64,000 bases of DNA from a virus, in IMG/VR virus record IMGVR_UViG_3300025411_000008, positions 67,917-131,916 of that record. The stretch is one strand, 5' to 3'. A model generated the notes under the pieces. That model saw only the letters and a list, made by a program, of their open reading frames with translations, searched no databases and was not told the DNA's origin. Shown here one piece after another: positions 43,536 to 59,496 of the stretch; position 1 is the stretch's first letter, and each line of letters starts with the position of its first letter. Position numbers and translations under genes: made by a program.

Positions 43536-43605
43536 TCTGCTGTAGCTCAGTGGTAGAGCAGCGAACGTATGTTCGTAGTCGTGGGTTCGATTCCCACCAG
43601 CAGTA
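43536..43605 (+). ncRNA. tRNA-like element with non-canonical anticodon loop
   Basis: Canonical D and T arms, 6-bp acceptor stem plus a U1/U72 mismatch; anticodon arm GCGAAC-GTAT-GTTCGT has no 7-nt loop. Confidence 0.75.
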
Positions 43606-43779
43606 CGATGGTGTTTTACACACACCAGGCAACAAGAGGACGCGCTCGGTCCGTCCGGCACCTCGGTCATAGCGACCCAAAGGACTTCGGTCCCTCTGCA
43701 CAGGGGTTCTGCTCCTGTGCAATAACACGGCCACCGACCGTGTCAGCGGTACTGACACACAACTAGATGGAGAACCATC

Positions 43780-51883: not shown

Positions 51884-52243
51884 ATGGAAGAGTTCAATCT
51901 CGACTTGACCCTTGACGAGGCAGCGGAGGCACGTATTGCTCACGCTGAGTTCCTCACTGGCATCAAGGACTGGGCGTTGCGACTGGGTGAGCTGATTCAG
52001 CCTTACACCCACATCGCCAACATCCTGCTCCAGGACGAAGTCTCGGAGTCTGACGTTGAGAAGTTGTCGATCGTGTTCCCGCTGGGCCTTCGGCTCACCA
52101 TTGAGCACATCAACAACTTCTATGATGTCATCCAGACTGAGGCCAAGAAAGTCTTGGGTTCACCATTTGCACTGCACGAGGAGCACTCGCCGCACTGCGA
52201 TGGCACCCGTGATGCTTGCGGCCACCAGGAACACTGGGCTTAA
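51884..52243 (+). CDS. hypothetical protein
   Basis: 119 aa, AAGGAG RBS. Confidence 0.7.
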   Translation: MEEFNLDLTLDEAAEARIAHAEFLTGIKDWALRLGELIQPYTHIANILLQDEVSESDVEKLSIVFPLGLRLTIEHINNFYDVIQTEAKKVLGSPFALHEEHSPHCDGTRDACGHQEHWA

Positions 52244-52252
52244 GGAGAGAAG

Positions 52253-52558
52253 ATGATCAAGACTGAAGTTCAAGAGCATGCTGAAGGTCTGCGGTCCCGT
52301 ATCAATGAGGCCACAGACCTTGACTCGCTCAAGGAATACAGCCTCAAGATCGTAGACCTTCTCACCAAGATTGACCAGTTGGTTGGTCTTGGTGAGGAGC
52401 GTTGGGTCTTGGCTGACTGTAAGTTAGAAGCTGTAACTACGGTCGCCAATGGTCTCATTGAGCTGCTTGAAGCCATTGAGGAATCGTCTACGATTCTAAA
52501 CAATGTCTCTTCTTACAGCGCAGCTATCGCAGCTGCTCGAGACATCATCGAGGCCTAG
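52253..52558 (+). CDS. hypothetical protein
   Basis: 101 aa, AAGGAG RBS. Confidence 0.7.
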   Translation: MIKTEVQEHAEGLRSRINEATDLDSLKEYSLKIVDLLTKIDQLVGLGEERWVLADCKLEAVTTVANGLIELLEAIEESSTILNNVSSYSAAIAAARDIIEA

Positions 52559-52559
52559 T

Positions 52560-53766
52560 TGTAACCTCCCTCGGCTAATTGGGGGAGCCTTAGCTCTTGC
52601 GAACTAACTCCACGCATTTACACACACAGTGTGTATTTGACGTGGGGTTGGTTGGCAGACGATGTGGAGGGTTATCGTTAAAACCCTAGCCTGGGCTATG
52701 CCGTTGAGGAGGAGATGGCGGTTGCATACTATGGCTTGTCCTGGAAAAGATATGGAAGCTGGTAGATGGTTAAACTATCTATAAAGCCCTCAGCATAAGG
52801 GGAAGCTTATGTAGGAAAATCAAGGCGCCTTAAAGGCCTATCGCAGAGGAGCGGAGAATCCATACTTGTTGGTAGATAGACATAGGAACCATCGTGCAAG
52901 CGAGCGCGTGTACAGGTGAAGACGCTCAAGCCTATGCATGCTTCGTTGTGTGCATAGGCCCTGTTGTGTTTACAGTGACCAGAGATGCAGGCGTGCAGTT
53001 TTATACGCAACGCACAGGAGTCGAGTTAAACACAATCTCAGCATGAGGGGAAGCTCATGTAGGAGCGGAGGCTCTCCTTAAACCTGCACACTTAAATCCC
53101 GGCCACCGATGTAAAACGTGGTAGCTGCGCTAGCTTAACTGGCGATCCCGTACATGCTTCATTGTGTGTACGGGAGCAACTCACGGCGAGTATACCAGAC
53201 CCAGCTGGCAACCTGTAAAGGCCATCTCACCATACGGGGAAGCGTATGGAGGCAATCAGAAGCCTACTTAATAGACGGGAAGCTACTGCCAGAGTGTAGC
53301 CGGTGCAATCCGTTAGCTTGCTAATACTTCCTAGTTGGTATGATACAAAGGAACTAGGGTGGTCCTGGGTATGACCACTGGAAAACTGCCCTCTTTCTCT
53401 TCAACCACGATGCACCGGCATATGAGCCTTATGAGATCGTTGGTTGATAGACTCGGCATGAGGAGCAACTCATGTAGGTTGGCCTACTACCTGTGTGTTA
53501 CACGAGTGTATGGCGTCCTGGGTATGACGATAAACTGCCTCCTTTCTTGTGTTCACATGGACAGCATATGCGCGATGAGATGCGAACACGGACTCAACAT
53601 AAGGAGCAGCTTATGTAGGAAGTGGTAGATGCCTACTTAAAAAATACACGTTACCCAGAACGATACTTTGGTAGCTTCTTAGTTGGTAGTTGGAACTATG
53701 GTGCTAGTAAGCGCGAGTACTGGTGAAGACGCTTAACACCTGGGCATGTGTATAAAAGGCCTACTA
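52560..53766 (+). ncRNA. putative large modular ncRNA (~1.2 kb)
   Basis: No credible ORF in an otherwise gene-dense region; five classes of repeated hairpin/pseudoknot modules with compensatory changes and G-U pairs on the + strand. Confidence 0.72.
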
Positions 53767-53900
53767 GGGTGTGTAGTTTAAGCTGGAAAAACCCTTAGTA
53801 GCTGTGACATCCAACTATCTAAATATAGAAAATTGTTGGTTAGCACTCAGAACTTACGTCACGGTTAAAGGGAATGGTGGTTCGAACCCACCCACACCCA
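53767..53900 (+). ncRNA. tRNA-like element with ~60-nt expansion of the anticodon arm
   Basis: Acceptor GGGTGTG/CACACCC-A, D stem GTTT/AAAC, T arm GGTGG-TTCGAAC-CCACC, extended stem TAGCTGTGAC/GTCACGGTTA. Confidence 0.8.
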
Positions 53901-53929
53901 CGCAGTACCAAACCAACTAGTAAGGAGAT

Positions 53930-54163
53930 ATGATGGAAATCAAGGTAGAACAGCAGGGACCTGAGCTTCGTATGCAAGTCATCTTTGATGAGCCTGCGCA
54001 GTCGGAAGTCTTTCGTGAAGAGTTCGAATCAATGATGGAGCGCATCGCCAAGCGTCTTGACGCAGTGGTACTCGGTGCAGAAACCGATGGTTCAATCTCT
54101 AAGGAAGAGATCCGTAAGCAGTTTGCAGAGACTGTTAACAAGTTCGTTAGCAAGGAGGAGTAA
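53930..54163 (+). CDS. hypothetical protein
   Basis: 77 aa, AAGGAG RBS. Confidence 0.7.
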   Translation: MMEIKVEQQGPELRMQVIFDEPAQSEVFREEFESMMERIAKRLDAVVLGAETDGSISKEEIRKQFAETVNKFVSKEE

Positions 54164-55367: not shown

Positions 55368-55429
55368 GCTTCAGTTTGGTAACGAAGTTCAACAGTTCGA
55401 TTCTGTTGTGGAGCACTCCCAAGTAGGGA
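55368..55429 (+). ncRNA. mini tRNA mimic 1 (acceptor stem + T arm) with trailing hairpin
   Basis: GCTTCA/TGGAGC, CAACAG-TTCGATT-CTGTTG, then TCCC-AAGTA-GGGA. Confidence 0.65.
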
Positions 55430-57824: not shown

Positions 57825-58088
57825 ATGGATTGGTTTGACGACGCTAAGTGTAAAGGCGTTAGTCAAGACGTTTTCTTTCTTGAGGGTCATGCAGGCCCAA
57901 AAGAATCAAGAGAGAGAGTAGTTGCTGCTAGGGTTTACTGCAATGCTTGCCCTGTAAAGCAGAAGTGTCTTGAGTATGCAATAAAGAACAAGGAGAAGCA
58001 CGGCATTTACGGCGGTGCTACTCCAGTAGAACGCCATGCTATGCGTGGTTTTATAAAGAAAGAAAGTAAGTTAAGTGTTGTTAAGTGA
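57825..58088 (+). CDS. whiB: WhiB-family transcription factor
   Basis: W...AKC, FF, CNACPVKQKCLEYA and HGIYGG.T..ER. Confidence 0.9.
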   Translation: MDWFDDAKCKGVSQDVFFLEGHAGPKESRERVVAARVYCNACPVKQKCLEYAIKNKEKHGIYGGATPVERHAMRGFIKKESKLSVVK

Positions 58089-58199
58089 TTATGGCCTAGA
58101 GCCACCAACAAACTTGGTCGAAGCCCATCTAGTAATTGAAAAGTTGCTAGATCGGTGCGATCAACTCAATGAAATCATCGAAGAGTTAGAGGAGTATTA

Positions 58200-58406
58200 A
58201 TGGCTAAGTATATTATCCGTGACTGGATGAATAACGTACTGTTTGACGGTATCGAGTTCGACAGTTTTGAGGAAGGATGGGATTGGTTGTACGTCAACCA
58301 CCCAGAGCCTGAGGAGTCAAGTTCCGACTGGATTGACGGTTGGAATGACGACTGGTTCGTAGTAGAGAAAGGTTACAGTGTGACCGGAAACAAGGAGGAA
58401 GAGTAA
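58200..58406 (+). CDS. hypothetical protein
   Basis: 68 aa, AGGAG RBS. Confidence 0.65.
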   Translation: MAKYIIRDWMNNVLFDGIEFDSFEEGWDWLYVNHPEPEESSSDWIDGWNDDWFVVEKGYSVTGNKEEE

Positions 58407-58554
58407 TGGATCCAGAGACACTAGAGGCAGCAATTAGCTTAACTAAGTGGTGCATTAAAGATGCAGAGAATAGCGGCGACTTAGAACACGCTATTCACAA
58501 TCTCAAGCGCATCTACGCATTCTTGACAGACACCGAGATAGGAGAGGAGGTATA

Positions 58555-58746
58555 ATGCAAGAGTATTACACAAGAGTTTCTATGGACGTTGCTGTTACGG
58601 CAAACAGTCCTGAAGAAGCAACTGAGAAATTAAATGATTGGCTAGACCGTCAGCAACTGATCGACAAGTCAATAGAGTCTGATTTCTGGTGGGACAACAT
58701 CGATTGGGATGATTGGGCTATCGTAAACACAGGAGAGGAAGCATAG
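58555..58746 (+). CDS. hypothetical protein
   Basis: 63 aa; V.A.S.EEA motif; GGAGG RBS. Confidence 0.65.
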   Translation: MQEYYTRVSMDVAVTANSPEEATEKLNDWLDRQQLIDKSIESDFWWDNIDWDDWAIVNTGEEA

Positions 58747-58994
58747 TGAGTAAGAAATATCCTATTTGTTTAACATGTGGTATGGAGTTAGATACTCCAT
58801 TAAAGCACCCATGTGACGAATGTGATGATGGTACGTGCGATGAATGCTGGGAGGTATAATGAAATGTAGTATATGTCAACTACCAATTCATGAGCCATTC
58901 GTTGGCCATGACTATGTAGATCATGTATGCTGTTTGAGGGATGAAACCCTCATGTGTGAGCATGATCATCGAGCAATCAAGTAAGGAGTAAGTT

Positions 58995-59183
58995 ATGATA
59001 TGTGAACCATGTGATCATGGACCTACTGTATATGAAAACTATTGTCAACATTGCAATGGTTTATGCCCCATATGTAGTGAGATGGGTGAGTGTGACACCT
59101 GTGGTAGAGAATATGAATTAGCTAGTCGTGATGGTCGCTGTGGCGACTGTGGCGATTGCAACGAGTGTTGTACCCACCTATAA
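58995..59183 (+). CDS. small Cys-rich protein
   Basis: 62 aa, multiple CxxC motifs, AAGGAG RBS. Confidence 0.6.
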   Translation: MICEPCDHGPTVYENYCQHCNGLCPICSEMGECDTCGREYELASRDGRCGDCGDCNECCTHL

Positions 59184-59206
59184 GATAGAAAGTAAGGAAA
59201 TAAACT

Positions 59207-59377
59207 ATGGCTTTCGCCACTAAAAAGAAGCTTTCAATGTGTCCACGTTGTAAGGAAACGTATTCAGGGTTCCCCGCTCTGTCTCGGCTCGACAACAAGA
59301 CATCAATCTGCTCCCCCTGTGGGACAGACGAGGCAATGCAGGACTTCGCAGGCGTCCCGCTCACTAACTTCCTATAA
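59207..59377 (+). CDS. small Zn-finger protein (CPRC...ALSR.DN...IC..CG..EA)
   Basis: Hand-translated 56 aa after an AAGGA RBS. Confidence 0.65.
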   Translation: MAFATKKKLSMCPRCKETYSGFPALSRLDNKTSICSPCGTDEAMQDFAGVPLTNFL

Positions 59378-59496
59378 GGAACTAACTCCTCGCATTTACA
59401 CACATAGTCTATACGATCAAACAAAGGAGGCAGTACCGAGTAAGCTAATATAAACCATGATGCAGTAAAATCTAGTTGAAGAAAAAAAGGCCTAGC

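Follow-up and report, generated by a model that had tools for sequence, protein, structure and literature searches.

A modular, covarying RNA locus with a tRNA-like 3' element in a freshwater phage genome

A noncoding gap built from repeated + strand RNA modules

We analyzed a gap between genes in the IMG/VR virus record IMGVR_UViG_3300025411_000008 (131,916 bp, about 89% complete), which represents an uncultured freshwater phage. The gap spans 1,371 nucleotides (nt) at positions 52559-53929 of the final 64 kb of the record, which we call the window. It consists of repeated modules that fold as RNA of the + strand, belongs to a family of homologous loci, and carries a conserved tRNA-like element at its 3' end. 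We interpret it as a modular noncoding RNA array that would be transcribed, processed, and stable, and that would act in trans as a multivalent decoy or platform; we put the probability of this reading at about one half. Given the conserved loops on covarying stems, the self-closing units, and the variable number of units, we argue for a chain of autonomously folding, semi-independent domains rather than one fixed globular fold.

The gap is bounded by the stop codon of an open reading frame (ORF) of 101 amino acids (aa; 52253-52558) and the ATG at 53930 of the downstream gene, which has a ribosome binding site (RBS), AAGGAG, at 53922-53927. The longest ORF within the gap has 89 aa and a GTG start (53359-53628). 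When stop-free segments of 11 family members were compared in six frames, no conserved frame was open throughout, and likeness between members was limited to pieces of ≤58 aa spread over all six frames. The sole other long stretch of the window without a 70-aa ORF, at 58.1-59.5 kb, holds tiny RBS-backed ORFs; therefore, the gap is the longest noncoding stretch of the window, as a preliminary description of this DNA had stated when it reported the absence of any RBS-backed ORF. Between 42.4 and 60.8 kb, every gene is encoded by the + strand.

Covariation in module A and in a 365-nt block

Module A is a hairpin with an almost invariant purine hexaloop (GGGAAG or GAGCAR). A covariance model (CM) of this module has exactly five matches in the window, all on the + strand with E values from 4e-10 to 1e-6, and a stem-loop regular expression found no further copies in the 131.9-kb record. 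Considering 32 copies from 13 loci, 97.7% of cells are paired and seven of the nine pairs have changed on both sides, although the rule for selecting copies required the five innermost pairs and left only the two outer pairs free of it; the covariation score was reached by none of 500 shuffles. With a degenerate pattern that leaves both inner stem positions free, matches occur in 12 viral contigs, and the free positions are complementary in 14/14 contig matches and in 5/5 window copies. A looser pattern gave at least 120 matches in bacterial and archaeal genomes; among the matches listed, the best stem had 5 of 6 pairs and none was fully complementary.

The pair spectrum also identifies the strand. 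One module A pair occurs as GU in 12 copies, UG in 4, CG in 7, AU in 4, GC in 1, and UA in 1, and this spectrum of GU and UG pairs works only on the + strand. Motif densities per kb are likewise asymmetric between the + strand and its reverse complement: 10.2 for GGAG versus 2.9 for CTCC, 4.4 for TGGTAG versus 0, and 2.9 for GGGAAG versus 0. Beside each A hairpin lies a second hairpin or pseudoknot; the second hairpin, P2, by eye opens at a conserved AGG and closes ahead of a UUAA-like run, with the stem variants AGGAG/CUCCU, AGGC/GCCU, AGUG/CACU, and UCGG/CCGG. We also considered by eye a pairing between the GGGAAG loop and pyrimidine tracts and make no claim for it; the pattern carries little information, and GAGCAR loops have no matching partner.

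A collinear block of 365 nt (53030-53394) could be aligned between the window and eight metagenome relatives. These nine sequences were drawn from 11 candidates; L299 (short, resembling L278) and L288 (a partial match) were left out (L numbers designate individual loci). RNAalifold predicted 70 pairs, 29 of them compensatory. After we edited this structure by removing one doubtful helix and adding two pseudoknot stems, 30 of 76 pairs are compensatory and 98.3% of 664 cells are paired, compared to 30.7 to 38.3% in controls in which the pairing partners were slid. Because the structure derives from the same alignment and is favored by it, a fairer judgment comes from the slid controls and the number of compensatory pairs. 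By our count from the per-pair table, 72 of the 664 cells are G-U or U-G, versus about 11 that are unpaired. Compensatory changes affect 6 of 7 pairs in the A3 stem (helix 7), 7 of 12 in the C2 stem (helix 5), which is homologous to C1, and 3 of 7 in a longer-range helix enclosing A3 (helix 6, 88.9% paired). The pairs of the pseudoknot PK2 never vary, so this fold is consistent with the alignment but unproven by covariation. Selection on + strand RNA structure is thus well supported, and both alignments bear out the earlier proposal that module copies differ by compensatory changes and G-U pairs that function on the + strand; a covariation check on homologs had been suggested at that time.

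A family with variable module number and order

The locus always lies downstream of an AAA+ (MoxR/CobS-like) gene, a gene for a 496-aa VWA-type protein, and one or two small ORFs. We collected relatives of the VWA-type protein with an alignment query (searches with a single protein gave little) and found it in 15 IMG/VR contigs; the gap is visible in 14 of these, and all 14 gaps contain A modules. A metagenome search returned 51 matching stretches with 31 distinct A signatures, apparently from freshwater assemblies, and the module A CM has 76 matches in 25 sources, all within homologous gaps. All DNA runs in which the gap sequence itself occurs are labeled freshwater, pond, or simply metagenome. 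In public phage genomes, blastn in distant mode gave no match. From these searches, the family appears to be confined to one clade of freshwater phages. Two window ORFs match WhiB families, and these WhiB-like genes make an actinobacterial host probable.

Compared by BLAST, the relatives have gaps of about 440 to 1570 nt with one to six A units and a shuffled block order; this pattern suits an array of autonomous units better than a single fixed fold and leaves the original suggestion of one giant RNA unsupported. The A units are separated by module B, by long hairpins (modules C and E), and by compact pseudoknots of the H type whose third loops are A-rich. A repeat search, the CM, and pseudoknot fitting recovered all modules of the preliminary description (five A, two B, two C, three D, and two E) where it had placed them (Table 1).

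A conserved tRNA-like element at the 3' end

The element that closes the array begins 3 nt after the last pseudoknot (D3). Its 7-bp acceptor stem and 5-bp T stem with T-loop would stack coaxially; the T loop reads TTCGAAC, no CCA is encoded, and a roughly 60-nt extended arm replaces the normal anticodon arm (fold z = -3.4). It is not a canonical tRNA: neither RF00005 nor ARAGORN at default settings matches 53767-53900, although the seven true tRNAs of the window are recognized. Once an insert is allowed, ARAGORN calls a "tRNA-Leu(tag)" whose insert is 40 nt long and whose anticodon stem is mismatched. The L274/L278 lineage, which is 83% identical to the window, also has this element right after a D-type pseudoknot. 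By our count on the alignment, five of seven acceptor pairs and one of five T-stem pairs have changed on both sides in L274, whereas the long arm retains an unpaired 12-nt motif without any difference between the window and this lineage. These arms and their compensatory changes uphold the earlier observation of a tRNA-like end, and we regard the element as real and conserved and as a candidate mimic of RNase P substrates.

Short T-arm-like hairpins (5-bp stem, TTCRAnn loop) occur between small + strand genes at 55391, 56694, and 57360 of the window and recur throughout the clade (L134 at 9855 and 10385; L139 at 8792; L274 at 2172, 3497, and 4140; and others); TTAGGG or TTGGGG follows most of them. 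Such hairpins may serve as tRNA-like punctuation that RNase P or RNase Z recognizes. Separately, the Rfam tRNA model scores 57 bits at 43536-43606, a site that ARAGORN calls as a tRNA whose "anticodon" is given as just two bases (ta).

Module D is a widespread gene-end pseudoknot

All three D modules can be drawn as H-type pseudoknots whose third loop is A-rich. Stem 1 is common to D1 and D2, as are the loop CUGGGUAU, an A-rich linker that ends in AAAC, and a loop-pairing UGCC(C/U). Stem 2, formed by the loop core and its partner, co-changes in at least seven ways within the family. A generic pseudoknot scan found four sites on the + strand, compared to 0.71 in shuffles (0 of 100 reach four), and two on the - strand, a modest enrichment.

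Outside the family, the fixed-loop D pattern has at least 118 matching stretches; among the matches listed, 61 of 63 with the A-rich linker have a stem of at least 3 bp, compared to 10 of 55 without it. The loop, linker, and partner of the D1/D2 type occur in more than 50 unrelated viral contigs. We define this element by a stem 1 of 3 to 7 bp closing on C-G, a loop CUG..AU, an A-rich linker, and a downstream partner of the loop core; D1 and D2 fit exactly, and D3 is a variant. Module D is thus a widespread phage gene-end pseudoknot rather than a feature specific to this locus. Because it is generic in unrelated viral contigs, part of the locus's seemingly novel content is a common element. 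The earlier claim of novelty therefore does not extend to module D, but the locus as a whole has no match in Rfam 15.

Across 56 distinct loci examined, most copies of the gene-end pseudoknot are intergenic. By our count it starts 5 to 8 nt past a same-strand stop codon in about 27 of the 56, and in five, from unrelated phages, it lies 5 to 8 nt ahead of real tRNA genes. The genes upstream are often highly expressed types: Hsp20 accounts for 10 of 36 ORFs, and head proteins and proteases also occur. In four loci among those from unrelated viral contigs (L104-L132 and L016-L100), an extended -10-like promoter sequence lies within about 10 to 15 nt after the pseudoknot. This promoter-like layout, together with the frequent position after an Hsp20, major head, or protease gene, fits an element that works where the upstream message ends, at its 3' side. 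D1 to D3 are placed differently: no ORF lies upstream of them, and the copies are internal to the locus. No Rfam family was found at the pseudoknot sites in 13 such loci.

Comparison with known RNA classes

At gathering thresholds, Rfam 15 identified only seven tRNAs in the window. For the locus (E ≤ 10) and eight relatives, it returned only tRNAs and sub-threshold chance matches. GOLLD (RF02032; gathering score 150 bits, modeled on the conserved 3' domain) has no match at E ≤ 10 in the 131.9-kb record, and none by cmscan in the window, the locus, or the eight relatives. ROOL (RF03087; 99.1 bits) also has no match at E ≤ 10; control genomes likewise gave none with this model, so that mainly the cmscan of the locus and window counts. 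The cmscan comparison proposed in the preliminary description thus yields no family match and agrees with its impression that the locus is neither GOLLD nor ROOL; to judge from these searches, the RNA family is absent from Rfam 15. A limited literature search found no paper on the locus as a whole. A study of IMG/VR sequences describes a catalogue of 10,006 candidate structured RNAs of up to 151 nt (PMC10690425), which may include single modules of the locus.

Like GOLLD and ROOL, the locus is large (hundreds of nt to >1 kb), phage encoded, ORF-free, rich in helices and pseudoknots, and tRNA-linked. Unlike them, it consists of repeated units whose number and order vary among close relatives. 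GOLLD is reported to have been discovered in samples from lakes, to vary in its 5' part, and to contain tRNAs in some cases (PMC12286853).

The stem and linker of module D resemble the stem and spacer of the plant-virus motif coremin, the 20-nt motif of the exonuclease-resistant RNA class xrRNA-C, which is described as a GUC...GAC stem followed by GUUAAAC, with a hairpin 1 loop of YGAD or YGNNAD (PMC10520033). By this description, module D is not coremin: the octaloop CUGGGUAU departs from the loop rule in having U rather than G at position 2, and its downstream partner pairs as a pseudoknot stem instead of a second hairpin. 

Several better understood RNAs offer partial parallels. xrRNA-C stalls Xrn1. 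In the subgenomic RNA of flaviviruses, tandem exonuclease-resistant pseudoknots produce a decay-resistant RNA that titrates host factors; the locus also has compact pseudoknots in series, but it belongs to a DNA phage, and we draw the idea of a decay-resistant RNA by analogy. In the eukaryotic MALAT1-mascRNA system, a tRNA-like element follows a long noncoding RNA and a triple helix caps the 3' end. The phage locus similarly has a tRNA-like element just downstream of the RNA and would have its new 3' end beside a compact structure, although the cap would be an H-type pseudoknot and the cleavage by RNase P is our proposal. The sponge RNAs CsrB and RsmZ consist of a variable number of similar hairpins with a conserved purine loop, as the locus does, but its loop is GGGAAG or GAGCAR rather than a positioned GGA, and CsrA is not known from actinobacteria, the likely host group.

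Three other candidates were rejected. Transfer-messenger RNA is also pseudoknot-rich with a tRNA-like end; here ARAGORN detects none even when relaxed (-ps80), there is no Rfam match and no tag frame, and the 3:70 pair is G-C, not G-U. Arrays of the ToxI type (type III toxin-antitoxin systems) have tandem, near-identical repeats of about 34 to 36 nt beside a gene for a ToxN-type endoribonuclease. The locus has no tandem repeats at a score of ≥30, and among 10 neighboring proteins there was no ToxN-like match, the sole match being a weak one to AbiEii (E = 0.0034). A Y RNA paired with Ro60/Rsr was considered for the 496-aa protein, which has no Pfam TROVE match and no PDB sequence match; its structure model (pLDDT 69.3) gives weak VWA-domain matches (E ≥ 0.043), with no Ro60 in the best 50 listed.

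Further features of the locus and its surroundings

Table 1. Features of the locus, in window coordinates (bp, base pairs; MFE, minimum free energy; CM, covariance model; helix numbers refer to the 365-nt block)
Feature	Position	Strand	Description
Conserved 5' box (candidate)	52591..52623	+	kept in long relatives
Stable 5' hairpin overlapping the box	52604..52650	+	MFE -25.1 kcal/mol, z = -6.8, 0/200 shuffles as good
5'-domain H-type pseudoknot	52658..52689	+	stem 1, loop with AGGG, A-rich linker, CCCU; pseudoknot scan
Conserved 5' domain	52690..52787	+	purine-rich GGAG runs, GGUAG hairpin; structure partly worked out
Module A1	52788..52815	+	7-bp hairpin, hexaloop GGGAAG, CUCA/UAGG flanks; CM 45.5 bits, E = 1.1e-9
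P2 hairpin after A1	to about 52838	+	P2 stem comparison
Module B1	52885..52929	+	82% identical to B2 (repeat search)
Module C1	52930..52959	+	12-bp hairpin, two G-U pairs, z = -7.0
Module A2	53036..53063	+	CM 47.1 bits; helix 1
P2 of A2	to about 53085	+	AGGAG/CUCCU
Pseudoknot PK2	53096..53121	+	GCCAC loop with GUGG past A-rich linker; helices 2, 3
Small covarying hairpin	53128..53144	+	helix 4: 4/6 pairs changed on both sides, 100% paired
Module C2	53146..53176	+	12-bp hairpin, z = -6.8; helix 5
Longer-range helix enclosing A3	about 53187-53194 with 53325-53331	+	block-alignment columns 165-172, 310-316
Module A3	53225..53252	+	CM match; P2 to about 53269; helices 7, 8
Hairpin CCUAGUU/AACUAGG	53330..53358	+	helix 11: 100% paired, 1/7 pairs compensatory
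Module D1	53358..53403	+	loop CUGGGUAU, linker ending AAAC, UGCCC partner, then pyrimidine tract; helices 12, 13
Module E1, long hairpin	53399..53452	+	z = -3.75
Module A4	53451..53478	+	hexaloop GAGCAA; CM 35 bits, E = 1e-6
Module D2	53514..53550	+	pseudoknot and pyrimidine tract (CCUCCUUUCU)
Module E2	53546..53593	+	z = -1.9
Module A5	53592..53619	+	hexaloop GAGCAG; P2 to about 53637; CM 41.6 bits
Module B2	53692..53736	+	82% identical to B1 (repeat search)
Module D3, variant pseudoknot	53736..53763	+	loop CUGGGCAU, partner GCCUA; pseudoknot scan
tRNA-like element	53767..53900	+	7-bp acceptor stem, D arm, T arm, discriminator A; ARAGORN intron option

The conserved 5' box is possibly a phage-specific promoter or processing signal. 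The record holds one other copy, at 59369-59401 (26 of 33 bases identical); it immediately follows a 56-aa ORF's stop codon and lies ahead of the next RBS. Stem 1 of the 5'-domain pseudoknot differs in sequence among the window, L294, L288, and L271 while its pairing is kept. The 5' domain that follows has a mean column identity of 66% with seven relatives. Five loci (L278, L283, L288, L271, and L294) have an extra H-type pseudoknot in this domain (loop UUGGGAU, linker UAAAAG; alignment columns about 70-100) that is absent from the window, an example of module gain or loss. By eye, the closing stem of B1, GAGCG/CGCUC, is GAGUG/CACUC in L134, and the stems of E1 have a different sequence in relatives with pairing kept.

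Downstream of the locus, 58075-59377 contains seven tightly packed, very small ORFs (41 to 68 aa) with RBSs; several have paired CxxC motifs, and their products may be small zinc-binding proteins. Upstream, the small ORFs at 51960-52159 and 52360-52559 reach MFE z-scores near -5 whichever strand is folded, values that most of the noncoding locus equals at best.

Discussion

We propose that the segment would be co-transcribed with the surrounding block of small + strand genes and that RNase P would cut at the tRNA-like element, leaving a 3' end only 3 nt past pseudoknot D3. 3' exonucleases have tail-length requirements, and the 3-nt tail beyond D3 would be too short for such an enzyme to grip; the 5' hairpin and internal pseudoknots could block decay from the other side. 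The recurring layout of a pseudoknot, a few bases, and then a tRNA or tRNA mimic suggests such a shielded, RNase P-made 3' end. The array is probably nuclease-resistant, and a stable RNA of about 1.15 to 1.3 kb would accumulate. Its repeated invariant loops would offer several binding sites for one partner, such as a host protein, the ribosome, or an RNase, and the RNA would act as a multivalent decoy or platform with a strength that scales with the number of units; a stable RNA with five copies of an invariant hexaloop would suit this role. Taken further, the locus might represent a new class of large phage RNA, a modular, exonuclease-proof, RNase P-cut "beads-on-a-string" whose hexaloops would capture many copies of a host factor, perhaps an enzyme of RNA decay or the ribosomal subunits, while freshwater actinobacteria are being taken over, and whose copy number would evolve fast and so tune the dose. 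We offer this extended proposal tentatively, as a possibility that we do not favor.

Several observations weigh against a stable, trans-acting array. The partner of the conserved loops is postulated. Sigma-70 promoters and intrinsic terminators occur at the locus only at chance level, and no RNA run is listed among those that contain the stretch. MFE z-scores in 200-nt windows along the locus are -5.9 for the first and then an ordinary -2.9 to +0.2; flanking coding ORFs, at -4 to -5, score as low or lower, and module B alone has no stable MFE fold (z about 0). Because these z-scores are ordinary, the case for structure is made independently of thermodynamics. The covariation counts need caution as well: the aligned sequences come largely from a few lakes, the collections overlap, and several metagenome loci duplicate phages already represented by IMG/VR contigs. 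Cell counts therefore overstate the number of independent events. Since only the window and L274/L278 have the tRNA-like element, it is not a general route to the 3' end; the other family members lack it, and their gaps close with a pseudoknot that a short conserved spacer separates from the RBS. In every relative, the gap ends directly at the RBS of the next gene, which a purely cis-acting role would fit equally well.

Such a role, in which the gap is an overgrown intercistronic region that insulates, stabilizes, or tunes the flanking messages and gives rise to no separate RNA, is somewhat unlikely in our judgment. It would account for the layout of the family gaps, in which a stop codon precedes the gap and a pseudoknot plus a short conserved A/U-rich spacer leads straight into the next RBS, and module D is elsewhere a stand-alone gene-end element. 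A 20-nt inner stretch is also 85% complementary to the pre-RBS region in the window and in L134, but this complementarity is not kept in L135 or L274. Insulation alone hardly explains five invariant-loop hairpins found nowhere else in the 132-kb record, and the tRNA-like element suggests that an RNA is released. If an RNA is released, it could instead be one giant molecule whose overall architecture is defined and which, like GOLLD or ROOL, might assemble with itself. The size, phage origin, lake source, lack of ORFs, pseudoknots, and tRNA link all recall those RNAs, GOLLD is reported to have a variable 5' part and occasional tRNAs (PMC12286853), and at least one longer-range helix, helix 6, encloses a whole A unit. 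We nevertheless consider this unlikely: unit number and order are not conserved, we found neither a conserved global core nor a conserved 5'-3' closing helix in the family, the GOLLD and ROOL models have no match, and palindromic hexamers, examined as potential kissing contacts, are not enriched (15 versus 20.7 expected).

At the other extreme, the transcript could be a precursor cut into separate small RNAs, one per unit, that act singly. The units are self-closing, as the P2 comparison and helix 6 indicate, and the many intergenic tRNA-like minihelices of the clade suggest that processing signals are common there; however, the absence of any tRNA-like or other recognizable cleavage signal between the units within the locus makes this quite improbable. 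Least plausible of all is that the region functions as DNA (a replication origin, packaging site, or recombination hotspot) or as several small ORFs. The repeats, the lack of ORFs, and the shuffling of modules among relatives might be expected of a DNA element, but the stems covary while loops are conserved, the G-U pairs make sense for just one of the strands, A-rich third loops characterize the pseudoknots, and there is neither a tandem repeat nor a conserved frame.

Few large structured RNAs, GOLLD and ROOL among them, are known from phages, and none is known to have an established function. The locus belongs to this known kind and differs in its modular, copy-number-variable build: it adds a family of repeated, shuffled, individually covarying units with a conserved tRNA mimic. 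It also ties a common gene-end pseudoknot to a concrete idea, namely, that this element may cap RNA ends made by RNase P, given that a distance of 3 to 8 nt separates it from a following tRNA or tRNA-like element both in this locus and in unrelated phages. Should the RNA prove stable and active in trans, bacterial viruses would have their own equivalent of the decay-resistant noncoding RNAs of other viruses, in phages whose hosts are abundant, uncultured lake bacteria.

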